Shown here: in pieces, positions 862 through 44,673 of the stretch
How positions within the stretch are numbered: position 1 is the stretch's first letter
Layout of the letters: each line of letters starts with the position of its first letter
From: an uncultured virus (IMG/VR IMGVR_UViG_3300045234_000013)
Taxonomy: Duplodnaviria; Heunggongvirae; Uroviricota; Caudoviricetes
Direction: 5' to 3' (one strand)
IMG/VR virus record: IMGVR_UViG_3300045234_000013
DNA: 64,000 bases
Position numbers and translations under genes: made by a program
The notes under the pieces: model-generated
What the model was told of the DNA's origin: nothing
Database searches by the model: none
What the model saw: only the letters and a program-made list of their open reading frames with translations

Positions 862-895
862 ATCCGGGATCGTCGCCAATTAAGGAGGAACTGTA

Positions 896-1214: not shown

Positions 1215-1712
1215 TTGGAAATTCAAGTACATGAACTGCCAGAATCTCAGCTAGATATGATCGCTGAGAAAGTAGTTGCTAGGTTAGTGGAAGCGACTAA
1301 GCAAAGGCGAAAAGAGCTAAGGTCCAATTCATACCATAATACAAGGACGCTCTTGAGGAATTACTACAGATTAAAAACTCACTGCAAAATAGTAGAGGAG
1401 CAAGTCGAAGAGGATTTCGCTTCAATGTGGAATGACTGGCGCTTTGATGTAGATAGTCTACTAGAACATAAGGCGAAAACAGCAAAATTAATGAAACATG
1501 TTGATAAGGCTTTAGTTGAACTAAAAGCAGAGGATGAGCGAGCCTATGATATTTTAAACATGAAGTACTTGCTACCTAAGTGTTTTGCTGATGAATACAT
1601 TGCTTCGAAATACGCTGTTGATCGAAGGACGATAGGGAAGTGGATAAAAAAAGCTGTTGAACAGCTATCAGTATTTATCTTTGGAGTGGATGTTGTAATT
1701 GATTGGTTGTAA
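1215..1712 (+). CDS. Late transcription activator (ArpU/RinA/LtrC-like)
   Basis: Position just before the late leader and terminase; C-terminal HTH (DEYIASKYAVDRRTIGKWIKKAV); RBS GGAGG before TTG 1215. Confidence 0.75.
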   Translation: MEIQVHELPESQLDMIAEKVVARLVEATKQRRKELRSNSYHNTRTLLRNYYRLKTHCKIVEEQVEEDFASMWNDWRFDVDSLLEHKAKTAKLMKHVDKALVELKAEDERAYDILNMKYLLPKCFADEYIASKYAVDRRTIGKWIKKAVEQLSVFIFGVDVVIDWL

Positions 1713-26708: not shown

Positions 26709-27845
26709 CTACTTACCCTTAGCATTGAGTTTTTCAACAATACTAGCCTTTGTCTTCTTGGTTACATGGGTGTATATCTTCATTGTTGTTTCCATGTCGG
26801 AGTGTCCTACACGTTCCATGATTGCTTTTACAGGTATGTTCAATTCAGCAAGTAGCGAGATGTGAGAGTGTCTAAAAATATGGCTAGACATTTTCTTTTT
26901 GATAGCATCTTTACCAAGCTTGTCATTCATAGTCTTTAGCGAGTTATTAAATGCATTGATTTGAATCGGCTTGCCAGTCTTACCAATAAAGAGATAAGGA
27001 GTTTTACCCTTGAATTTTAACTTATTCTCCAAAATCAATTCGTCGATTATTTCAATCGCTCGATTAGATAGATCAATTTCACGATATGATGCTAGGGTCT
27101 TAGGCATCTCTTTTTTTGCATTTTTATAGCCGTCCGAATAATCTAAAGTACCAATAACCTTTATAGTTTGGCTATTCGGATTGTAATCATCAATTGTGAG
27201 GCTTATAGCTTCGCCTGCACGCAGTCCAGTTAAATACATGAACTCAGCTAACCTTCCGTGATGGACGCTCTGAAACGTGCTGTAATAGACGTTCAATAGC
27301 TTGTTGATTTCTTCTTCTTCTAAATACTTATCTTCCACTCTTTCATAAGTTTCTTTTGTTAAAGCTGGTTTAGGAACTTTCGCCCTGTTAATAGGATTAA
27401 TTTTGATCATTTCCATATCCACTGCATAATCAAGCGCCATTTTTAGCACACTTCGAAACTTCTTCTTATATTCGTAAGATTGAGGTAACTCATTTATGAA
27501 ATCTTGATAAAATCTTGTGTCTGTATTTCGCACCACCGCAGCAGTGTTAATATTCTTTCGTATGTATTTCAAAAGTTTTTCATAATTAACTTGTGATGAT
27601 TGGCGAATAGAAACCTTATGCTGATTCCACCACGCATCTAATAGCTCGCCAAGTGTAATCTTGATTTGATTTTTTTCTTCGATCTTCTTATCAATTTTTT
27701 CTTGAAGTTCTATGTTTGCTTGCTTCTTAGCTTGATTAGATTTGCTGTTAAGTGTGATGGAAACTTTTCTGCTTTTTTCTGTGTATGGGTCAATGTATCG
27801 TTCAGAATATTTGTATTTCCCGTTCGGTAATTCTTCGATCCACAT
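26709..27845 (-). CDS. int: Tyrosine integrase
   Basis: TGLRAGE, HIFRHSH, RVGH, IYTH catalytic motifs. Confidence 0.96.
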   Translation of the reverse strand: MWIEELPNGKYKYSERYIDPYTEKSRKVSITLNSKSNQAKKQANIELQEKIDKKIEEKNQIKITLGELLDAWWNQHKVSIRQSSQVNYEKLLKYIRKNINTAAVVRNTDTRFYQDFINELPQSYEYKKKFRSVLKMALDYAVDMEMIKINPINRAKVPKPALTKETYERVEDKYLEEEEINKLLNVYYSTFQSVHHGRLAEFMYLTGLRAGEAISLTIDDYNPNSQTIKVIGTLDYSDGYKNAKKEMPKTLASYREIDLSNRAIEIIDELILENKLKFKGKTPYLFIGKTGKPIQINAFNNSLKTMNDKLGKDAIKKKMSSHIFRHSHISLLAELNIPVKAIMERVGHSDMETTMKIYTHVTKKTKASIVEKLNAKGK

Positions 27846-28549: not shown

Positions 28550-29209
28550 TTAATATTTTCTTTTATTAGGATTAGCCATATCCCACACAACTTTTCCTTC
28601 TATGCAAACCTCACTAAGCGTAATTGGGTCATCTATCATCCATGGTTTGAAACCATCATCATAAGAATCAGGCTGTAGCACTAAGAGATTTTTCCCGCAT
28701 ATAACTCTTTTTACAGTCGTCTCATCTCCGTTTATTCTGACTGCATAAACTAAACCGGATTCGATCTCTGCATCAGGATCAATTACTAATAATTGTCCGT
28801 CTGGAAATAACCTATTCATCGATTCACCCGATGTTTCGAGAAGATAGCCATTTGGATAATTTTCCTTAATCTCTGCGGGCACTTGGATTTCTTCGGGATT
28901 TGAGTAGGTGACTAAAGGTTTGCCCGCAACTATGGTTCCTATTAAAGGCATGGTTTCTCTAGAACCTATCAACCTAGGTTTAACAACTCCTGGTAAAGAA
29001 TAGTAATCAATACTGTACAGGTTTGATAGTTTAATCAAAATTGAATCTGGAAATGGCAGTTTCCCATTTTCGTATTTAGATAGTGTAGCATTATTAAGCC
29101 CCAATTTAGGAGCTATTTCCAGTTGGCTTAACTTCTTTTCTTTTCTTGCTTGTTTCATTATTGCTGCAACTTTTAATTGATCTTCATTTAATTTATCTGT
29201 CGCCATCAA
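28550..29209 (-). CDS. cI-like repressor (HTH + S24 peptidase)
   Basis: XRE HTH, AG cleavage site (IVAG), GESM serine and TVKR lysine. Confidence 0.93.
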   Translation of the reverse strand: MMATDKLNEDQLKVAAIMKQARKEKKLSQLEIAPKLGLNNATLSKYENGKLPFPDSILIKLSNLYSIDYYSLPGVVKPRLIGSRETMPLIGTIVAGKPLVTYSNPEEIQVPAEIKENYPNGYLLETSGESMNRLFPDGQLLVIDPDAEIESGLVYAVRINGDETTVKRVICGKNLLVLQPDSYDDGFKPWMIDDPITLSEVCIEGKVVWDMANPNKRKY

Positions 29210-29252
29210 TAAACACCACTTTTCCTTTAGAACTAAATTTACTATAACATTT

Positions 29253-29610
29253 TTGCTTTATAGGCAATAGAATTATTTTAATCGAAAAATAGTTTGCTTG
29301 TGGGCAAATATCGTGTTATAGTCAATTTGTAATAACGAAGGGAGGTAAAAATAAGTGTTATTAAATTTAAAAAAAATCGAAACAACGAGAAAGTCTAATA
29401 AGAAAAGCGTTACTGAAATGGGATTAATAATGGGAATGAATGGCGCTTCCTATTGGAAAAAGGAAAATGGAATTTATTCTTTTAATGCCAATGAGTTGCC
29501 TATTTTAATGGACGCTTTGGGGAAAGACATCACTGAATTACCTGAATTTTTTTTAGATGACAATTTGCCCATAAGCAAATAATTTGTTATTTATTTTGCT
29601 TTTAAAGCAA
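29253..29610. promoter_or_regulatory. Palindromic operators TTGC-N6/7-GCAA
   Basis: Copies at 29253-29267, 29294-29307, 29565-29578 and 29596-29610. Confidence 0.7.
29355..29582 (+). CDS. Cro-like HTH repressor
   Basis: Divergent from cI; SYWKKENG motif. Confidence 0.85.
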   Translation: MLLNLKKIETTRKSNKKSVTEMGLIMGMNGASYWKKENGIYSFNANELPILMDALGKDITELPEFFLDDNLPISK

Positions 29611-32181: not shown

Positions 32182-32895
32182 ATGGAGATAATTAAAGCAG
32201 CTGATATTGATCGCGCTAGTAGTTTTTCCATTTTAATCTATGCACCGCCTGGCGGGGGTAAAACATATACGGCTAATTACCTAAAAGGAAAAACACTTGT
32301 GATAGATATTGACCGCACTACAAACGTTTTAGCAGGAAATCCAAACATTGATATCGTTTATGCAGATTTAAATGATGTGGAGGTTGGAATGAAACGAATG
32401 TTAAGAGATATTCATGACAATTATTTAGACCAATATGACAATATCTTTTTTGATAACTTATCTGAATTCGAACAAGCATGGCTAGCAGAGAAATCAAGAC
32501 TATCAAAAACACGTGACGGTAAAGCAATGGGGATTCCTGAAATGGGCGATTATAACAAATTCTCATTTTACCTGCCTGACATGATTCGATACATCAATTC
32601 ATGGAAAGGTGTAAACAAAGTTTTTACCGCTTGGGAAACACAAATTCAAATTCAATCACCGGGTGGTCAAATATTCAATCAGTTTCATCCACAGATTCGA
32701 GAGAAGATTGTGAACAATATAATGGGCCTGATGAATATGGTTGGTCGTTTAATGCTCAATGAAGAAACAGGTAAAAGAGGGTTTTTATTAAAACGAACAG
32801 ATCAAACCTATGCCAAAAATCAACTAGACGATCGAGAGTTTGCTCTGCAAGAGGAGTTGTTCGATATTGATGAAACTATACGATTATCAGAATGA
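32182..32895 (+). CDS. Sak4-like AAA ATPase (single-strand annealing)
   Basis: IYAPPGGGKT, FDNLSE, YAKNQLD motifs. Confidence 0.88.
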   Translation: MEIIKAADIDRASSFSILIYAPPGGGKTYTANYLKGKTLVIDIDRTTNVLAGNPNIDIVYADLNDVEVGMKRMLRDIHDNYLDQYDNIFFDNLSEFEQAWLAEKSRLSKTRDGKAMGIPEMGDYNKFSFYLPDMIRYINSWKGVNKVFTAWETQIQIQSPGGQIFNQFHPQIREKIVNNIMGLMNMVGRLMLNEETGKRGFLLKRTDQTYAKNQLDDREFALQEELFDIDETIRLSE

Positions 32896-35204: not shown

Positions 35205-37517
35205 ATGTACGAAAAAATCCCAACAGAGCTTAAAAATCTCAAACAGTGGTGTGTTTACAAGCTAGTTTGGGATGAAAAAAGAAACAAACACACAAAGATT
35301 CCTTATAACGCAAACAATGGATATAAAGCAAAATCTAACGATGAGAGCACATGGTCTGATTTCCAGACCGCTCTCGATGCTGTTAGCACATTCGATATGA
35401 GTGGATTAGGTTTTTTCTTCAAACCGCCATATTTTGGAATTGATATTGATAACGCAGAAGGTGAAGTCGAGCGATATAAAACAGGAGATGTGGAAGAGAA
35501 TATCATTTATGAATTCATAGAAAGCATGAAGTCTTATGCTGAATATTCGCAGTCAGGTACTGGCATCCACATTATCGCTAGGGGAGAACTGCCCGGCGGA
35601 AGGCGTCGCAAAGGTGATGTTGAGATGTATCAAGATGGACGGTTTTTCGTTATGACAGGCAATGCAGCATCTAGCTATTTAGATGTTTCGGATCCTAATC
35701 CCAAAAATATTAAGCGTTTATATGATCGTTATGTAGGCGATTCTAAAGTTATTCAATTTAAAGAAGAGAACCCTTTGATGAATACAGTAGAATTGCCAAT
35801 CGATGAAATTGTTAAGCGAGCGCTGGCTTCTTCTCAAGGGGCACGCTTTAAAGTTTTTATGGATGGCGGTTGGGAAGCATTTTATTCTTCTCAATCAGAA
35901 GCAGATATGGCTTTTGCAAATGACCTAGCATTCTGGACAGGTAGAGATTTTGGAAAGATGGATGAAATTTTTCGTTCGTCAGCAATGATCCGAAGTAAAT
36001 ATGATCAAAAAAGAGGCGCCACAACTTATGGTGAAGGTCTTCTAAATAAAGCGATTGCCGACACGAACTCCGTTTATAACCCGAAACGTAAATCTGATTT
36101 TAGGATCTATATCAAAGACCAAGAACAACTTAAAGAAAAGAAATTTTACTCATATGACGACACAGGAAATGCAGATCGTTTTAATGATATTTATGGAACG
36201 TTAGTCCGGTATTCCTATATTGACAAATCATGGTATTACTATGATGGAAAAGTCTGGATGCAAGATAATACCGGTGAAGTTCGGAAAATGGTCGATACAA
36301 CTGTTGAAATCATGGGGAAAGAACCTTTATCCGTTCCGGAAGGAGCCGATGAAGAAACAAGAGAAGCGTTAGAAAAAGCAAAAGAAAAGCACGTCAAACG
36401 ATCTCGAAGCAACGCTGGTAAAAATGCAATGATGGACGAATTAAAACACCGTTTATCTGTGTTGCCTGAAGAATTCGATCGAGACAAATCATTATTCAAT
36501 ACGCAAAGCGGATATTTGTCACTCAATAATGGGCTTCTACATGAGCATGAAATTAGAAAAATGTTCACTCGCATTTCAGACGTTGAATATACTGAATCGG
36601 TTGATTATCCAATGTGGGAAGAGTTCATCAATCAGATATTTAACAATGATCAAGAATTAATCGAGTACATTCAAAAGTGTGTCGGATACTCACTCACAGG
36701 TTCCACGAGAGAGCAGTGCATGTTCATTCTTTATGGTCACGGTTCGAATGGTAAATCTGTATTCTTGGAAATCATTTCAGAACTCATGGGGAATTATGCT
36801 ATGACTATGCAAGCGCAAACGATCATGGTGAAACAGAATCAATCATCGGCAAACAGTGATATTGCAAGATTGAAAGGCGCACGATTAGTTACATCGTCAG
36901 AACCAAACGAAGGCGTCCGATTGGACGAAGGCTTAGTAAAACAGTTGACGGGTGGCGATAAGGTAACTGCACGGCATCTTTATGGGAAAGAATTTGAGTT
37001 TGAACCTGAATTCAAATTATGGTTAGCGACAAACCACAAACCGATTATTCGCGGAACCGACGATGGTATTTGGCGGAGATTGAACCTAATTCCGTTTATT
37101 GTACAGATTCCTGACCACAAGAAAGATAAAAACTTGAAATACAAACTGCAAACAGAACTGCAAGGCATTTTAAAATGGGCCATCGATGGTTGCTTAATGT
37201 GGCAGAGAGAGGGCTTGAAAAAACCACCGTCAGTTGTTGCAGCCAGTCAGGATTATCGCAGTGAAATGGACCAGATAGGTACATTTGTTGAAACATGTTG
37301 CGAAACAGGCACAGGACTAAAAATATCAGGCGGAGAATTATACAAAGTTTATCGTGAATGGGCGTTGGACAATGGAGAGCATACATTTACAAATACGAAA
37401 TTCGGTAGAGAGATTTCAAAGAAATATACCAAAAAAAAATCTGATGGCGTAATGGTTTATACAGGAATAACACTGAAACCAAGAAAATACGATAACGTTC
37501 GAGAATTGTTTAAATAG
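35205..37517 (+). CDS. Primase-polymerase / D5-type SF3 helicase (P4 family)
   Basis: GIDID, EYSQSGTGIH, DDTGNA, GHGSNGKS, DDGIWRR. Confidence 0.93.
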   Translation: MYEKIPTELKNLKQWCVYKLVWDEKRNKHTKIPYNANNGYKAKSNDESTWSDFQTALDAVSTFDMSGLGFFFKPPYFGIDIDNAEGEVERYKTGDVEENIIYEFIESMKSYAEYSQSGTGIHIIARGELPGGRRRKGDVEMYQDGRFFVMTGNAASSYLDVSDPNPKNIKRLYDRYVGDSKVIQFKEENPLMNTVELPIDEIVKRALASSQGARFKVFMDGGWEAFYSSQSEADMAFANDLAFWTGRDFGKMDEIFRSSAMIRSKYDQKRGATTYGEGLLNKAIADTNSVYNPKRKSDFRIYIKDQEQLKEKKFYSYDDTGNADRFNDIYGTLVRYSYIDKSWYYYDGKVWMQDNTGEVRKMVDTTVEIMGKEPLSVPEGADEETREALEKAKEKHVKRSRSNAGKNAMMDELKHRLSVLPEEFDRDKSLFNTQSGYLSLNNGLLHEHEIRKMFTRISDVEYTESVDYPMWEEFINQIFNNDQELIEYIQKCVGYSLTGSTREQCMFILYGHGSNGKSVFLEIISELMGNYAMTMQAQTIMVKQNQSSANSDIARLKGARLVTSSEPNEGVRLDEGLVKQLTGGDKVTARHLYGKEFEFEPEFKLWLATNHKPIIRGTDDGIWRRLNLIPFIVQIPDHKKDKNLKYKLQTELQGILKWAIDGCLMWQREGLKKPPSVVAASQDYRSEMDQIGTFVETCCETGTGLKISGGELYKVYREWALDNGEHTFTNTKFGREISKKYTKKKSDGVMVYTGITLKPRKYDNVRELFK

Positions 37518-37757: not shown

Positions 37758-38072
37758 TTGAAATCAGAACATCAAATACAAGATGAGATCAGAATTGCCT
37801 TATCAAAGAACGGTTGTACCATTTTTAGATCAAACGCTGGACAGGTAACTACGATCGAAGGAAGACAATTTTATGGAATGCCAAAAGGATTCCCTGATCT
37901 GTGTGGGCATAGAAATTCAGATGGAAAATCGATCTATATCGAAGTCAAAAACGAAACAGGCAAACTTCGACCAGATCAAATACGATTCGGCGAATTTTTA
38001 AAAAAGCAGCCTGTTCTATATGGAGTCGCAAGGTCTGTCGAGGACGCTTTGCGGATTGTTAATAAGAAATAA
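37758..38072 (+). CDS. VRR-NUC nuclease
   Basis: GFPDL, IEVK, LRPDQ motifs. Confidence 0.9.
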   Translation: MKSEHQIQDEIRIALSKNGCTIFRSNAGQVTTIEGRQFYGMPKGFPDLCGHRNSDGKSIYIEVKNETGKLRPDQIRFGEFLKKQPVLYGVARSVEDALRIVNKK

Positions 38073-38101
38073 AAATATTTCAATTGAAATAGGAGGGTCT
38101 A

Positions 38102-38368
38102 ATGAATACAACCAATAATAGAAAATTTGGTAAGTTTCTCGCGACGAACAACACGTTATCGCCAAAGAGACCGCAATTAAATCCGGACAAATATTACAAG
38201 CTGGATTACGAAAAATGCATCTATTCGATCGTTGGGAAATTGATTAACGAGTATAAACATACGGCGTGTTTTGAAATTGTGAATTGGCATGAAGCTGACG
38301 GTGCTACATTGAGAAACTTGGGCCATCGGGTGATCGTTAGAAAACAAGAAGCCGTTGAGATTGAGTAG
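38102..38368 (+). CDS. Hypothetical protein
   Basis: RBS AGGAGG. Confidence 0.75.
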   Translation: MNTTNNRKFGKFLATNNTLSPKRPQLNPDKYYKLDYEKCIYSIVGKLINEYKHTACFEIVNWHEADGATLRNLGHRVIVRKQEAVEIE

Positions 38369-38423
38369 CGTAAAGTTACTTAGTTTGGGGCATTAGCAGA
38401 GGAAAAGGAAAAGAGGGAATTAG

Positions 38424-38657
38424 ATGATTTACATTAAAAATTTCAATCATGATTTTGAATCTTCTACAATCACGTTTGAAGTAGAAAATGAAGGAGTAAC
38501 AAATAAAGTGGAGACTAAAGAAAGCGGCTACGGTGCAACTTCTACTGATATAGATTCATTTCCTGACATCGAGGATTGGTCTGACGCTGAGTACAGCCAG
38601 CTAGAAGATTTTCTGAGCGGTTGCCAACAAATTGTTCACCAATTTTATCATTATTGA
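38424..38657 (+). CDS. Hypothetical acidic protein
   Basis: RBS; 77 aa. Confidence 0.75.
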   Translation: MIYIKNFNHDFESSTITFEVENEGVTNKVETKESGYGATSTDIDSFPDIEDWSDAEYSQLEDFLSGCQQIVHQFYHY

Positions 38658-38688
38658 TCCACTAACGGAGGACTTAGAGGAGGAAAAA

Positions 38689-38997
38689 ATGAAGACGTTA
38701 AAAATTGAAATGACTAGACGAGATAAAGTAAAAGTGAAACTTGATGAATCATATTTTACCGATGAATGGTTCGAAGAATTTAGAGAGTTTTTCTATGACT
38801 TTTATGATTTGGAACAGTTAGCCGAACATATCGCTTACAACATTGTCCATAACAATGCGACGTTTATTGAAGGCGTGGGCACACCTCTCAGAGATGGTGA
38901 AAAGCCGTATTGGTTGAGCGAGTCAGAGGAGAAACAACTTAATAAGCATGTGAACGTAATTTTTAATCCGTATGATACGGATGTTGAATACGAATAG
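38689..38997 (+). CDS. Hypothetical acidic protein
   Basis: RBS GAGGAGG before ATG 38689. Confidence 0.8.
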   Translation: MKTLKIEMTRRDKVKVKLDESYFTDEWFEEFREFFYDFYDLEQLAEHIAYNIVHNNATFIEGVGTPLRDGEKPYWLSESEEKQLNKHVNVIFNPYDTDVEYE

Positions 38998-39031
38998 TTC
39001 CGCAAACGACGGGCTTAGAGGAGGAAAATAA

Positions 39032-39307
39032 ATGAGAACAGAATGTAATAAATACCAAGAATACATGACTCATGGAGATAATACGATTGCTAATCATCGA
39101 GTTTACAAGTTCCCTAATGGTTGGGGTGCAAGTGTGATTTGCGGTTTCGGATCATACGGGTTGGAGTTAATGCCAATCAGTTTTGACGGATCAGGCGATT
39201 ATACCTTTAACTGGGAGCCTTTTGGCCATCTGTCTGACCAAGAGATGGAAGCTCACCTAACTGATATTTTTGAAAACGGAGAGAAATGTCAAAGAGAAGA
39301 AGTGTAA
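39032..39307 (+). CDS. Hypothetical protein (YKFPNGWGASVI motif)
   Basis: RBS GAGGAGG. Confidence 0.8.
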   Translation: MRTECNKYQEYMTHGDNTIANHRVYKFPNGWGASVICGFGSYGLELMPISFDGSGDYTFNWEPFGHLSDQEMEAHLTDIFENGEKCQREEV

Positions 39308-39341
39308 TTCCAGAAACGAAGGCAATAGGAGAGGTTTTTAA

Positions 39342-39509
39342 ATGAATCAATATCAAGTTAAATATATTTCTCATAACGATCGGATAGCAGTCTGCTATTT
39401 ACATGCGGACAGTCTTAAAGAGGCGGAAGAATCTGCACGGATACTGCAAGGCTGCAAGCAATTGATTTCTATTCATGTGTGGCCAAAAGAACAGGAGGAC
39501 GGCGAATGA
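39342..39509 (+). CDS. Hypothetical protein, 55 aa
   Basis: RBS GAGG; MNQYQVKYISH... Confidence 0.7.
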   Translation: MNQYQVKYISHNDRIAVCYLHADSLKEAEESARILQGCKQLISIHVWPKEQEDGE

Positions 39510-39685
39510 TACCAGATGATAGATTACCGCGGTTCACCGCTTGGAAATTAACCGGACCGACTCCATTAAAAGGACAACACTGTGGGTATTGTAGTTCATT
39601 AACTGAAAAGCAAAAAAGAAAATTGGATTCGTGTCCAGAATGTGGAAAATCTTTATTTGCTTTTAGAAAAAGAAAGTTCCAGTAA
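39506..39685 (+). CDS. Small Zn-finger protein
   Basis: CGYC...CPEC; ATGA overlap. Confidence 0.7.
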   Translation: MIPDDRLPRFTAWKLTGPTPLKGQHCGYCSSLTEKQKRKLDSCPECGKSLFAFRKRKFQ

Positions 39686-39711
39686 CCACGCCAATAAAGG
39701 AGGATCTAAAA

Positions 39712-40008
39712 ATGGATATCATGGATCGATATTACGGACTGATCCTCAAAGAACAAGTAAAAATTTTGAAGCAGTACGTTAAGAAAAAGAGTCGAGCAGA
39801 TCAAATTATTCAAGAGTTAGCATTGACTCCTTCGCATACAACACAAAAGTATTGGCAAGCTGTTAGTCAGTCTGAATTATGTATTGCTGAGATTGATAAG
39901 CTCAAAAGGGAAATGAACTATTTAAATGAAAAATACAACTGGAAAAACTTGTTACATCAAGATCGGTTTAAGTTTATTGATGACGATGTATTAAAAGTGA
40001 TTGATTAG
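39712..40008 (+). CDS. Hypothetical protein
   Basis: RBS AAGGAGG. Confidence 0.75.
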   Translation: MDIMDRYYGLILKEQVKILKQYVKKKSRADQIIQELALTPSHTTQKYWQAVSQSELCIAEIDKLKREMNYLNEKYNWKNLLHQDRFKFIDDDVLKVID

Positions 40009-40055
40009 AACGTAGCTCGGCTAACTCAGCCTATCAAATAGAAAAGAGGTATGAA

Positions 40056-40586
40056 ATGAATAAACTAGAAAAAGAAGAACTTATTACTTTTGTTAACAGA
40101 GCAAAAGAAGATTTAAATTTTAGTTTTAGCGCATATCATAAAACATGTCCTGGATACGTCCAAGGAAACAAATTAATTAATTATATTGAACACCTATACG
40201 AGCAGCAGAAAGTCAAAGTGCCAGCATTTGCAGCTAAGTGGATTTCAAAATGTCTGGAATTAAATTGGATCTTGACTGACTTACTTGCACCAGAAGCTTT
40301 TGAATCAAACTTTGCTCGTAATACTGAAGAATGGCTGCGACAAGACAAACAAAATTACGATATTCTAGCTCGCGCATGGCTAGACGGCTACGAGGTCGAG
40401 GAGGAGCAGAAGTGGGTTGTGTTAGGCAAGCGAGGCTATTTGACTAGTCTTTCCATAGGTAAAGGTAAATCAACCGGATGGACAGGAAACGGTGATAAGC
40501 ACGGATCAGGAGCAATTCATTTTGATGATAAAGAAATGGCTCAATATACCGCATATATCGCTGGCGGCACAGTCGAGAAAGTGTAG
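40056..40586 (+). CDS. DUF1642-domain protein
   Basis: KVKVPAFAAKWI...ARAWLDGYEVEEE. Confidence 0.85.
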   Translation: MNKLEKEELITFVNRAKEDLNFSFSAYHKTCPGYVQGNKLINYIEHLYEQQKVKVPAFAAKWISKCLELNWILTDLLAPEAFESNFARNTEEWLRQDKQNYDILARAWLDGYEVEEEQKWVVLGKRGYLTSLSIGKGKSTGWTGNGDKHGSGAIHFDDKEMAQYTAYIAGGTVEKV

Positions 40587-40588
40587 GT

Positions 40589-41056
40589 GTGAAAATGGAA
40601 GAACAATATATTGTTTACGACAAAGAGGATGGTCTCATTTGCGCTGCTGACAAAGAAATGGCTGAAAAAGAATATAGAAAAGCAGTAGATTCAGCTCAGA
40701 GTTATTTAAATGGAATGTATCTTGACGGAGATGACATGGGATATCAAACAGTCCTTGCACAAGTAAAACAAGGATATCTGCTGCAGATGAATGAAGCTGA
40801 TAGTGAATGGGAAGAAGTATTTATAAAACCCCTGAAATTCAACGAAAACCAACAGATCGTATTGGAATGGCTGAAGAAAAAATACAAAACTACTGATATA
40901 GAACCAATTGAACTAATCTGGCGGCTTAGAGTTAATTCGAACTCAGATAGATGGAGACTTCAACCTCCATACAAAAATTATCGCTATCTGACTGAGGCAG
41001 CACAGTTTGAAGTCCTAGCAGCCTTCGCAGAATGGGGGTGCGAATCTAGTGAATGA
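40589..41056 (+). CDS. Hypothetical protein
   Basis: NENQQIVLEWLK...QFEVLAAFAEW domain. Confidence 0.75.
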   Translation: MKMEEQYIVYDKEDGLICAADKEMAEKEYRKAVDSAQSYLNGMYLDGDDMGYQTVLAQVKQGYLLQMNEADSEWEEVFIKPLKFNENQQIVLEWLKKKYKTTDIEPIELIWRLRVNSNSDRWRLQPPYKNYRYLTEAAQFEVLAAFAEWGCESSE

Positions 41057-41603
41057 AGAATGGAAAACAATTGAGCTGGAAGGCCATTTATACGAGATAT
41101 CCAATTTCGGCAGAGTGAGAAGTATCAGTAGATTTATTTACAGAAAAGATGGAATAAAAAGTTGGTACGAAGGTAAAGAACTTAATATTTTAAAAACTAA
41201 TCGAGGGTACAAATTTGTAAATATAACAAACAAAAACAAGCATACATGTACTAGATATAAGCTCCACAGATTGGTGGCTGTTTGCTTTGTTGATGGAAAA
41301 ACTAAAGAGAAAAAATATGTGAATCATATTGATGGAGATAAAAGTAACAATAATGCGAACAACCTTGAATGGGTAACCGATGCGGAAAACAAAAGACATG
41401 CAGCAAAAAATAAACTTTATTGCCAGGGATCGCGACACCCAGAAGCTAAATTTACGGAAGAAAAAATCCAAGAAATTAGAAAACAATACAAAGCTGGAGT
41501 GAGTCAAGCAGAATTGAGAAAAATGTACCATGTCGCTAATGCAACTATGTTCAATATAGTCCACAATATTTCTTGGAAATCGGTGAAAGAGGTGGCGGAA
41601 TAG
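41049..41603 (+). CDS. NUMOD4-HNH homing endonuclease
   Basis: EEWKTI...YEISNFGRVRS, HRLVA, VNHIDGDKSNNNANNLEW. Confidence 0.92.
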   Translation: MNEEWKTIELEGHLYEISNFGRVRSISRFIYRKDGIKSWYEGKELNILKTNRGYKFVNITNKNKHTCTRYKLHRLVAVCFVDGKTKEKKYVNHIDGDKSNNNANNLEWVTDAENKRHAAKNKLYCQGSRHPEAKFTEEKIQEIRKQYKAGVSQAELRKMYHVANATMFNIVHNISWKSVKEVAE

Positions 41604-41783
41604 ATGTGTAAATATTGCGACGGTTCAATTCATGAAGTAGAAAGCAAAGATTATGTGCACGTTGATACAACAGGAAGAACTATTCGTATTAAAGCTTACC
41701 CGGAAGGATACGAAGACGGCACTTGTATTTATATCAGACGGAAGTTTTGCCATGAATGTGGAAGAAAGTTGGCAGCAAAATGA
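41604..41783 (+). CDS. Small Zn-ribbon protein, 59 aa
   Basis: MCKYC...FCHECGRKL. Confidence 0.75.
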   Translation: MCKYCDGSIHEVESKDYVHVDTTGRTIRIKAYPEGYEDGTCIYIRRKFCHECGRKLAAK

Positions 41784-41986
41784 AGTTCTCAGATGAGTTA
41801 GATAAGCTGTGGACCATCGAAGATATTAATTCTACTGATCCTGAATATCCGGCGTATAAGGACGAGTACACTCAAGGCTATTTAGATGGAATTGAACAAT
41901 CAAAGAACTATGTCAGACAGCTTGAAAAGACACATGACGGTGCCCTAGAGACGCTTAAACAGAACATCAAGCGCTTCTTCTGCTAA
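41780..41986 (+). CDS. Hypothetical protein
   Basis: ATGA overlap; start at MKFSDE. Confidence 0.7.
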   Translation: MKFSDELDKLWTIEDINSTDPEYPAYKDEYTQGYLDGIEQSKNYVRQLEKTHDGALETLKQNIKRFFC

Positions 41987-42002
41987 CCGACCCAACTGCA
42001 TA

Positions 42003-42157
42003 GAAAAAGACAGCCGACCACTGGCTGCCTTGGAAAAAGAAACTTTCGCCTAGTTTCCGCTAGGCAGGTTTATTTTAGCACAAAAAGACCACCGGGATAA
42101 GTCAGTGGTCAGTGAGCTGGACATTGAAAGGATCAATAAAAAAGGAGTACCAGCTCT
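42003..42157 (-). ncRNA. Two tandem putative sRNAs (units H, I)
   Basis: Minus-strand -10 TATAAT (42163-68) and TGcTAAAAT (42072-80), each followed by a hairpin and an intrinsic terminator. Confidence 0.55.
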
Positions 42158-42191
42158 CACATATTATACAACAAAAAAGGAGTGGATTAAA

Positions 42192-42614
42192 ATGATACCG
42201 AAGTTTAGAGCGTGGGATAAAGAAGATAAACGAATGAGTTATGGTGAGATTGAATATTATGATGATTCATTCGGAGTTAGATTTGACCATTTCTGCGTAG
42301 GTGCAGATTTTGAAGTAGAATTCATGCAATCAACAGGCCTCAAAGACAAGAACGGCGTGGAGATATTCGATGGTGATTGCTTTATTAAAAATTTTAGAAC
42401 TATTGAAATACCTACTGGAAAAGATGGAATTGAAAAAGCTGTCGGAATAGTTAAATTTCATGAAGGAGCGTTTCACGTTCATATTGTCGGCTGGGGCTAT
42501 GAGCTGTTATCAAAAGTTGTGAAACCACAAATGTACGGAGCAAATAATGACTATTGGGAGAGTGAAGTAATCGGCAACATCTACGAAAATCCAGAGTTGT
42601 TGGAGGTGGAATAA
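42192..42614 (+). CDS. YopX family protein
   Basis: MIPKFRAWDK...QSTGLKDKNG...VIGNIYENPELL. Confidence 0.9.
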   Translation: MIPKFRAWDKEDKRMSYGEIEYYDDSFGVRFDHFCVGADFEVEFMQSTGLKDKNGVEIFDGDCFIKNFRTIEIPTGKDGIEKAVGIVKFHEGAFHVHIVGWGYELLSKVVKPQMYGANNDYWESEVIGNIYENPELLEVE

Positions 42615-42824
42615 GTGGATAAAAAAGAAGGATTTATCATTGATAATGCCCGATTCATCAACAGGCATTGTACGGGAGAAGATACCTTGTATTTTAGTGT
42701 GAATGAGGACGGCATACTTTTTCAAACGACGAGAGAGCCAGAAGATAAACAACATGATATTCCTATGACGAAGGATGAGTGGGAGTTGCTAAAGCGTCTA
42801 ATCGATGTTCAGTTAATCCGCTAA
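42615..42824 (+). CDS. Hypothetical protein
   Basis: RBS GGAGGTG. Confidence 0.75.
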   Translation: MDKKEGFIIDNARFINRHCTGEDTLYFSVNEDGILFQTTREPEDKQHDIPMTKDEWELLKRLIDVQLIR

Positions 42825-42858
42825 CGTCACCAATAGAGGAAGTTTAGGAGGGGTGTGA

Positions 42859-43083
42859 ATGAGCACGACAGAGGCTGTTTTTCGAATCATTTTGTTTATC
42901 GTTACATGGCGTATAGTCGCTTCTATATTCAAATCGTACAATAAAGCAATTAATGAACTGAATAAACGAATGAAAACGTTGGAGACACAAAAAGATCTCT
43001 ACATTGAATTCATTATGAAATTGAATGAAATTTTGAATAAAAGTGATAGCAAAGATACAGAACAACGGGGGAAGAATGATTGA
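42859..43083 (+). CDS. Small membrane / coiled-coil protein
   Basis: RBS AGGAGG; N-terminal TM. Confidence 0.7.
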   Translation: MSTTEAVFRIILFIVTWRIVASIFKSYNKAINELNKRMKTLETQKDLYIEFIMKLNEILNKSDSKDTEQRGKND

Positions 43084-43493
43084 GTAGAAATGATTATCTC
43101 ATAAACGAATTAGACAGGAAGTTTGCGAATTATCCGAATTACAATAGAGAAATCGCGATTCGAAAAGAAGAACTAAAAATGAAAGAGGCTGATGAGAACA
43201 TCGGCGGCGGTAAAGGGAACATTCGTAGCAATCCTGTTGAACAGCAAGTAATTAAAGAGTTATCTGATCCGTATATTGTCAATCGGCAGCTTTGGAAGAA
43301 GTGTATCAGGGAGACTTTAGAAAGTCAGAGCGCTGATATTAGAAAACTGATGGAGCTTAAATACTGGGGTGAAGATAGTTGGATGGATTGGGTAAGTTTT
43401 GGTCAAAAACATGGATATGCTCAAAAGACTATTTATCGATTGCGGCAGAAAATTTTACTTGATTTTGGAAGACGAATTGGGGAAATCAATTAA
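43080..43493 (+). CDS. RinA-family late transcription activator
   Basis: DENIGGGKGN..SNPVE, LKYW, C-terminal HTH; precedes the late leader. Confidence 0.85.
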   Translation: MSRNDYLINELDRKFANYPNYNREIAIRKEELKMKEADENIGGGKGNIRSNPVEQQVIKELSDPYIVNRQLWKKCIRETLESQSADIRKLMELKYWGEDSWMDWVSFGQKHGYAQKTIYRLRQKILLDFGRRIGEIN

Positions 43494-43980: not shown

Positions 43981-44055
43981 TGACGTGTAGCATCATGGTG
44001 ATGCATCTGACTGTCAGAGTTGGAAATGAGGTCGGTTCGATCCCGGCCACGTCAA
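43981..44055 (+). tRNA. Atypical tRNA (nominal anticodon GTC, Asp; 9-nt loop)
   Basis: Same body as 2133-2208 with a T>C change in the loop. Confidence 0.7.
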
Positions 44056-44390: not shown

Positions 44391-44445
44391 GTAGAAATTA
44401 TATCATTGTAACGCTTACAGGACAATGCGGAAAAGGAATATAAAA

Positions 44446-44673
44446 ATGAGAAACTATTGGTATGTGTCACTAAACAATAAATATCCTTTGCCAATGAGAG
44501 GTCAACATAAACGGGTGGTGATGTCTGTTCAGATGAAGGCGAAGTATTCGATCGTAGAAATGACCAGGGAAGCAACACCGGTTGAGGTTGATCAGTGCAA
44601 GATGGTCTATTGTGGGTTTGGTTATTGGAAAGAGGAACATGTGCAAGAGAACATAAAGAGGTGGTTAAGATGA
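44446..44673 (+). CDS. Hypothetical protein (paralog of 2606-2830)
   Basis: Near-identical except the last residues. Confidence 0.8.
   Translation: MRNYWYVSLNNKYPLPMRGQHKRVVMSVQMKAKYSIVEMTREATPVEVDQCKMVYCGFGYWKEEHVQENIKRWLR

Follow-up and report, generated by a model that had tools for sequence, protein, structure and literature searches.

Why should a sequence of only 19 bp recur between the small, variable genes of a temperate phage? The question is raised by a 64,000-nucleotide stretch of DNA from an uncultured virus of the Caudoviricetes (IMG/VR record IMGVR_UViG_3300045234_000013), here called the window. In it about 17 small early genes lie between the primase and the late activator of a phage (array 37758..43083, plus strand), and a degenerate motif punctuates their junctions. 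An original prediction, made from the letters alone, took the copies to be cassette or recombination sites. Our analysis shows that the motif is real and that the linker to which it belongs is portable between unrelated flanks. On balance we lean toward viewing it as a portable intercistronic linker that gives short homology for recombinational gene shuffling. All eight predicted copies were found in place, and a further junction carries part of the linker:

38657..38675, plus strand: copy 1; the stop codon TGA (38655-38657) overlaps motif position 1, and a Shine-Dalgarno (SD) sequence and ATG (38689) come next; leave-one-out score 13.8 bits.
38998..39016, plus strand: copy 2; immediately 3' of TAG (38995-38997), next start at 39032; leave-one-out score 15.3 bits.
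39308..39326, plus strand: copy 3; immediately 3' of TAA (39305-39307), next start at 39342; leave-one-out score 19.3 bits, 0 mismatches to the predicted consensus.
39677..39695, plus strand: copy 4; the upstream gene ends in the TAA at 39683-39685 (motif positions 7-9), next start at 39712; leave-one-out score 21.9 bits.
40016..40034, plus strand: copy 5, weak; member of a sub-family with a conserved stretch from TAA to the start of gene 40056; leave-one-out score 6.0 bits.
41978..41996, plus strand: copy 6, weak; at an operon end, with TAA (41984-41986) inside and no gene after it, a hairpin/terminator region following instead; leave-one-out score 9.5 bits.
42816..42834, plus strand: copy 7; TAA (42822-42824) inside, next start at 42859; leave-one-out score 20.2 bits.
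862..880, plus strand: copy 8, in the early region of a first phage in the window; after TAG (859-861), next start at 896; leave-one-out score 15.3 bits.
Junction 38369..38423, plus strand: right half of the linker family only (GGGGCATTAGCAGAGGAAA), without the TCC head.

Every copy stands at or on a stop codon, as had been claimed, and in six of them an SD sequence follows about 20 nt further on and then a start codon. The linker unit is composed of a stop codon, some 19 nt (consensus nTCCrCwAAC-gnnssC-wAT) and an SD sequence; the motif is the filler between stop and next SD, in spacers of 26-47 nt. The motif is anchored to the stop: of 52 stop-proximal matches, 18 have it starting straight after the stop, 11 use a TAA at positions 7-9 as the stop, and six have the last base of the stop as position 1. 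Conservation is position-specific (T2, C3, C4, A8, C10, A18, T19), and all eight copies in the window, together with the stop-proximal matches in relatives, lie on the transcribed strand. Nine of 42 plus-strand matches lack an SD sequence and start over the next 80 nt; a terminator-like hairpin comes after some of them, as at 41978. The right half GGGGCATTAGCAGAGGAAA, alone at 38369..38423, comes after a full motif head in one relative (L003, at 5634) and is also present in another (L019).

The copies differ in how well each stands by itself. The six strong ones (38657, 38998, 39308, 39677, 42816 and 862) have leave-one-out scores equaled at just 2-12 positions when both strands (128 kb) are counted, and those of 40016 and 41978 are equaled by 66 and 21 positions, so that neither weak copy is significant alone. 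Both weak copies have clear relatives in other phages. For 40016, positions 40022-40060 of the window form a 40-nt island of 97.5% identity to L019 (blastn) amid diverged genes, and the junction is also carried by L083; for 41978, the homologue in L019 (at 15738) matches the motif better and has the same downstream sequence. With at most two mismatches, the predicted consensus has six matches in the window against 0.52 expected, and none of 100 shuffles reaches six; the test is circular, since the consensus came from the same copies. The original prediction had also noticed no copy in the morphogenesis genes, and this holds: junctions there lack such a spacer, and the matrix matches in that region (7269, 51668 and 59930) fall inside coding sequence. 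One look-alike (1274-1292, minus strand, 17.5 bits, two mismatches to the predicted consensus) lies within the ArpU-like gene 1200-1712 of the first phage and is probably a chance match.

Relatives were gathered via a cassette protein, the primase and a YopX protein alignment, and were scanned with a scoring matrix built solely from the eight copies of the window; 30 column-permuted matrices served as controls. The scan of related Enterococcus prophages, proposed along with the prediction, revealed a clear stop-proximal excess: in 19 independent Enterococcus genome loci, 19 of 50 plus-strand matches are stop-proximal (permuted mean 0.9, maximum 2), and 17 viral loci of Enterococcus type give 14 of 37 (permuted mean 0.8, maximum 4). 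Loci of other genera, 61 in all, show no excess (5 of 68; permuted mean 2.9, maximum 8), and in 26 loci of a distant primase group none of 33 matches is stop-proximal. A test that does without the matrix gives a similar picture: a stop followed by (N)TCC opens 20 of the 285 spacers of Enterococcus type, compared with 3 of 333 from other genera, and among 31 unique sites selected by stop plus (N)TCC alone, C10 is present in 23, A8 in 21 and A18 in 21. An iterated matrix drifted to noise and was discarded.

These counts bear on the simplest alternative, namely that chance and the usual constraints on stop codons and ribosome binding sites produced a semblance of a motif. It draws on the two weak copies and on host chromosomes: in eight genomes of the E. 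casseliflavus genus a loose pattern has 17 matches (four for the reversed control), of which 11 are in coding-looking sequence. The other six are exact copies of one variant, TTCCRCAATCGTCAGCGAT, in five genomes, five of them directly after TAA, and four of the five chromosomal contexts scanned hold phage early genes (methyltransferase, YopX, late regulator). Given the strong enrichment in independent loci, its absence with permuted matrices and in other genera, and the 72 copies (below) of a word with 18 specified bases, chance is effectively ruled out. A suspected likeness to a conserved segment of 16S rRNA was likewise rejected: the segment scores 8.8 bits, the best match in an rRNA operon (of a related genome) 11.8 and the weakest real copy 12.3, and in 89 of 300 runs a permuted matrix attains 11.8.

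The motif has been found in the named E. gallinarum phages phiEG37K and EG-TP1; the named-phage collection holds no close relatives of the window at megablast level. Relatives L010-L018, which have the same primase and an array of ATGA overlaps, are without it, and it does not follow the stop of distant orthologues of gene 38689 (L005 and L006; 36-46% identity). A test for selection on diverged orthologous junctions offered only two usable pairs, neither with the motif. Outside Enterococcus, one copy of a linker sub-family is present in the 176-kb Streptococcus agalactiae phage vB_SagM-GXN1 (L129, PQ819873.1), in an unannotated stretch at about 83780-83820, in the order TAG, 19-mer with one change, SD, ATG.

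Identical copies of the linker stand between genes that are themselves unrelated. Across 71 IMG/VR stretches there are 72 exact copies of the variant TTCCRCAATCGTCAGCGAT, with TAA immediately 5' in 58 of them and TGA in two. Its flanks fall into 30 upstream groups (200 nt) and 21 downstream groups (coding sequence) that cannot be aligned with one another, in 49 combinations. In 2278 pairs formed by 68 copies, leftward homology ends after 3-4 nt, that is, with the stop codon, in 1289; rightward it ends at several points (1, 13, 18, 23 or 38 nt). Copies of the window behave in the same manner. The 19-mer at 862 is identical in L019 (at 16616) between unrelated flanks (identity 0.19 upstream, 0.24 downstream), and in IMG/VR contigs its linker is fused to other downstream genes. 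The linker at 39677 recurs in L019 behind a different gene, the stop of which adjoins the start of the motif. The identity profile around the linker is an island that extends from the stop to about +30.

Edges of shared sequence also lie within the linker. Homology of relatives L003 and L004 to the window is limited to 38663-39035 and 38664-39013, respectively (blastn): the shared unit is gene 38689-38997, and its edges lie within the two flanking motif copies. Orthologues of this gene in four phages, including L003, L004 and L048, keep the first ~13 nt of the motif that follows them, after which the sequence diverges. A second pattern, the CCAAT-SD sub-family (to which the window copies 862 and 39677 belong), has 22 copies with 11 upstream and nine downstream groups. 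Its left ten bases track the upstream gene and its SD side tracks the downstream gene. Two left and two right variants are seen in all four combinations, and exchanges therefore happen within the linker; middle and right variants re-assort as well, with apparent exchange points from ~10 to beyond 27, which are thus spread rather than fixed.

Such chimeric linkers, together with the unrelated flanks and the edges in L003 and L004, sustain one part of the prediction: the motif marks boundaries of cassette-like gene exchange. The other part, a site-specific mechanism, is not supported. According to it, single-gene circles would be excised and inserted by a tyrosine recombinase supplied in trans, either Xer or the phage integrase, in the manner of integrons or pdif modules. 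An attC site is an imperfect inverted repeat of tens of bases that folds to a hairpin, and an integron has an adjacent IntI, attI and a cassette promoter; pdif (Xer) modules have two ~11-bp inverted arms around a spacer of 6-8 bp, and their flanking sites are in opposite orientation. The Enterococcus motif is like these in punctuating a gene array with one site per cassette boundary, in having a sharp left edge exactly at the stop, and in that each half goes with the gene on its own side. It is unlike them in lying in spacers of only 26-47 nt, with neither inverted-repeat arms nor a hairpin. The mean best dyad fraction is 0.539 (0.542 +/- 0.016 in shuffles), all copies are direct, and the linker is identical across different cassettes, whereas integron sites are cassette-specific. 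The scatter of exchange points argues against a fixed crossover as well. No dedicated recombinase lies beside the array, as had been noted; there is only the ordinary phage integrase, 11 kb off. Among 16 loci with and 15 without the motif (about 6 kb of flank), no protein group is linked to it except the YopX anchor with which loci were fetched. A proposed likeness of the left part to the XerC-side arm of dif (ACTTCCTAGAA) is restricted to TTCC..AA. Contigs assembled from four RNA libraries, which show co-occurring variants of the locus (neither RNA ends nor proof of transcription), include none in any of the four sets that joins neighboring motif copies, a result uninformative on rare circles. 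A site-specific cassette system is thus highly improbable.

In the reading toward which we lean, the linker unit links small early accessory genes of temperate Enterococcus phages, and the same ~25-30 nt between unrelated gene pairs in many phages would form a homology patch. General or phage-encoded recombination would cross over at this patch, for example via single-strand annealing proteins, and every exchange would create a new upstream and a new downstream neighbor, both intact and expressed. Motif-bearing phages do encode annealing recombinases, a Sak4-like protein in this phage and RecT in EG-TP1, and the former (32389-32895) is a candidate catalyst of short-homology exchange. Linkers may persist because they ease the spread of their cassettes and provide a working stop/SD module. 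Annealing-type phage recombinases have been described as driving mosaicism on diverged substrates (PMC3945230), and a part for phage recombinases in mosaicism is also described in PMC5499656. The following results support recombinational shuffling at the linker: the motif is stop-enriched, one-stranded and found in independent Enterococcus loci only; identical linkers are portable across unrelated flanks, chimeric linkers exist and cassette edges lie within copies; and chromosomal copies sit in prophage early arrays, while motif-bearing phages encode annealing recombinases. That the exchanges were driven by homology is what we infer from this pattern.

Several observations weigh against it. 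Position-specific conservation, and an exact 19-mer in 49 contexts with sharp edges, resemble the result of selection on a signal more than that of passive homology. The shared homology is only 20-30 nt, and the recombination across it is deduced from compared sequences. TAA abuts the unit in 58 of 72 copies, and the model leaves this precise fusion to many unrelated genes unexplained. Nor are breakpoints specific to the motif. The original prediction expected those among relatives to fall in the motif, and this is so at both edges of gene 38689-38997; of all 1558 blastn alignment ends, 13 are inside 42 motif sites, and the surroundings (-20..+9) of 972 other stops hold 632. Since such ends gather at every gene end, the breakpoint test does not discriminate. 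Among the variants in RNA-library contigs, only the break at 42000/42011 adjoins a motif copy; breaks at 39510, 40570-40589, 41010, 41037/41584, 41601, 42107 and 42191 lie away from copies.

Because conservation is position-specific and abutment to TAA precise, a signal-type function has to be kept in view. The motif could act in cis, with a trans factor as its reader. A protein of the host or of the phage would bind or cut the 19-mer next to the stop, as RNA or as DNA; examples are a role in coordinating translation, in reinitiation once a ribosome has terminated, or in processing the polycistronic early message. Portability would be a by-product. The conserved C10, A8 and A18 of the 31 sites chosen by stop and TCC, the sharp-edged 19-mer, and an orientation that is strictly that of transcription fit this idea, as does the fixed SD spacing, with an A at +25 in 32 of 32 instances (selected by the matrix); the distance from motif to start is looser, at 30-49 nt. 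There is also precedent in the SAS/ESAS elements of Cluster K mycobacteriophages, described as being of unknown function (PMC3203893). Several results speak against a cis-signal. Folding shows no stable or conserved structure (mean z -0.09; 3 of 32 below -2), a hairpin ATCG-TCAG-CGAT being confined to one sub-family. Rfam has no family matching at the motif, the YopX anchor is the only protein group that co-occurs within about 6 kb, and most junctions in the same arrays are without the motif. Within array 37758-43083 it is present at seven of 16 internal junctions; at eight of the nine others the genes overlap, abut or are 8 nt apart, and the ninth (38072/38102), with a spacer of 29 nt, lacks the motif too. 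The cI/cro switch (29207-29354) likewise has no matrix match of 7 bits or more, the repeats there being of another type. Taken together, we consider a cis-acting signal possible and doubtful.

The empty switch also led us to reject the idea of stoperators, which are 13 bp long and have the same sequence as the operator of the repressor. Like the linker, those of mycobacteriophage L5 and Cluster A are asymmetric, lie in short intergenic regions and keep one orientation relative to transcription. Stoperators are also mentioned in PMC3203893.

A more radical form of signal is one in which TAA plus 19 nt is active punctuation: a host or phage factor would read it in DNA or RNA, and join or process open reading frames at their stop codons. 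This would explain the 58 of 72 copies that abut TAA after 30 unrelated genes, as well as the position-specific conservation. We think it rather unlikely; if it were true, Enterococcus phages would own a promoter-less, hairpin-less counterpart of the integron cassette site.

A last alternative is an anti-SD element for translational coupling, where the TCC head pairs with GGA of the downstream SD until a terminating ribosome frees the site. Helices of 5-8 bp between head and SD region are possible in several copies (8 bp in L118 at 9998, 6 bp in L048 at 6090, 5 bp in L084 at 6717). Across 33 copies, however, head and SD region do not covary: complementarity of own pairs is no better than that of cross pairs (10.61 and 10.24; P = 0.15), which tells against a cis-acting signal too. 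Folds are no more stable than those of shuffles, and nine of 42 plus-strand copies lack a downstream SD and start. Anti-SD pairing is therefore very unlikely to be what the motif is for.

The setting of the array is that of two phages in tandem. Scans with PHROG families place the tail end of the early region of the first phage, including a YopX gene (108-503), at 1-2830 of the window; its morphogenesis and lysis genes extend to 23381. The second phage, downstream, is temperate, and includes the array together with:

26709-27845, minus strand: integrase (PHROG scan).
28550-29206, minus strand: cI-like repressor (PHROG scan).
32389-32895 to 35205-37517: replication module, consisting of the Sak4-like annealing protein (32389-32895), helicase, HNH, SSB and primase (35205-37517).
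32389..32895, plus strand: Sak4-like single-strand annealing protein (phrog_124, E 5e-31).
37758..43083, plus strand: the array, ~17 small early genes from primase to late activator, punctuated by linkers.
43080-43493: ArpU-like late activator.
From 46452: terminase.

Both phages have members of the same gene families at equivalent places (108-503 and 42192-42614; 2606-2830 and 44425-44673), namely YopX (phrog_98), phrog_1202 and ArpU-like regulators; their packaging modules differ. Between its late activator and packaging genes the second phage has a tRNA gene (43981-44055, plus strand), which matches Rfam RF00005 with 37.3 bits, a value that exceeds the gathering score.

A free-standing HNH endonuclease gene (phrog_59, 41049-41603, plus strand) is missing in contigs of three of the four RNA-library runs (41038-41583), where 41037 is joined to 41584 with two other letters between, and its absence in co-occurring variants fits a mobile homing endonuclease. 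In one contig the 420 nt from 40589 to 41010, most of gene 40595-41056, are swapped for 354 other letters, with edges that are not at motif copies. The non-coding gap 41987-42191 (205 nt) has terminator-like hairpins on both strands and a weak, sub-threshold match to the Enterococcus small RNA Ref1C (24.6 bits; gathering score 90); it differs between co-occurring variants, 42011 being joined to 42107 or the stretch 42011-42107 changed.

How does the linker compare with elements already described in phages? The 'linker' of modular phage evolution (Susskind and Botstein 1978; Botstein 1980), as described in PMC2839356, is a short conserved sequence flanking interchangeable modules, so that exchange keeps a module placed and expressed. 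Here, too, ~25-30 nt are common to the borders of unrelated gene pairs, and linkers are chimeric. The concept was framed for functional modules of lambdoid phages; in the Enterococcus phages each unit is one small accessory gene, the linker spans precisely the interval from stop to SD, and homology-driven exchange is what the sequences suggest.

The promoter-early stem-loops (PeSLs) of T4-type phages (Arbiol et al. 2010, PMC2839356) are described as repeated cassettes between small non-essential ORFan genes in plastic regions, where genes are added, removed and replaced as copies recombine, which gives rise to chimeric elements; reshuffled genes and chimeras are found here as well. Excised mini-circles have been demonstrated for PeSLs (PMC2839356). 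As characterized there, a PeSL combines a strong sigma-70 promoter with a terminator stem-loop, whereas the Enterococcus linker has neither: promoter-like sites number 18 (18.4 in shuffles) with none at junctions, and terminator-like hairpins occur only at 42007-42110.

The SAS/ESAS elements (Pope et al. 2011, PMC3203893) are, in that account, asymmetric, in one orientation, restricted to non-structural genes of different families and confined to one phage group, all of which recalls the Enterococcus motif. The 13-bp SAS word includes the SD and stands 3-7 bp before the start (PMC3203893), whereas the Enterococcus motif is upstream of the SD and anchored to the stop; it can lack a downstream gene, and has no inverted repeats like those of ESAS. 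By analogy, then, the linker resembles PeSLs in behavior and SAS in distribution, not in position. We found no description of this motif family in the literature on Enterococcus phages, and the words 'intergenic', 'repeat', 'motif', 'mosaic' and 'junction' are all absent from the phiEG37k paper (PMC8511138).

Whether phage mosaicism arises via conserved linkers or from random joints later sorted by selection is an old debate, to which this linker family brings a clean, countable case in Gram-positive temperate phages: one short, structure-less spacer is reused between dozens of unrelated accessory genes, and its chimeric copies record exchanges. Should the conserved positions prove to be a signal, the motif would be a new regulatory element. 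With the linker, accessory-gene cassettes in Enterococcus prophages, many of which have no known function, can be located and their limits drawn; it also offers a handle for testing how homology of 20-30 nt and annealing recombinases shape phage gene flow.

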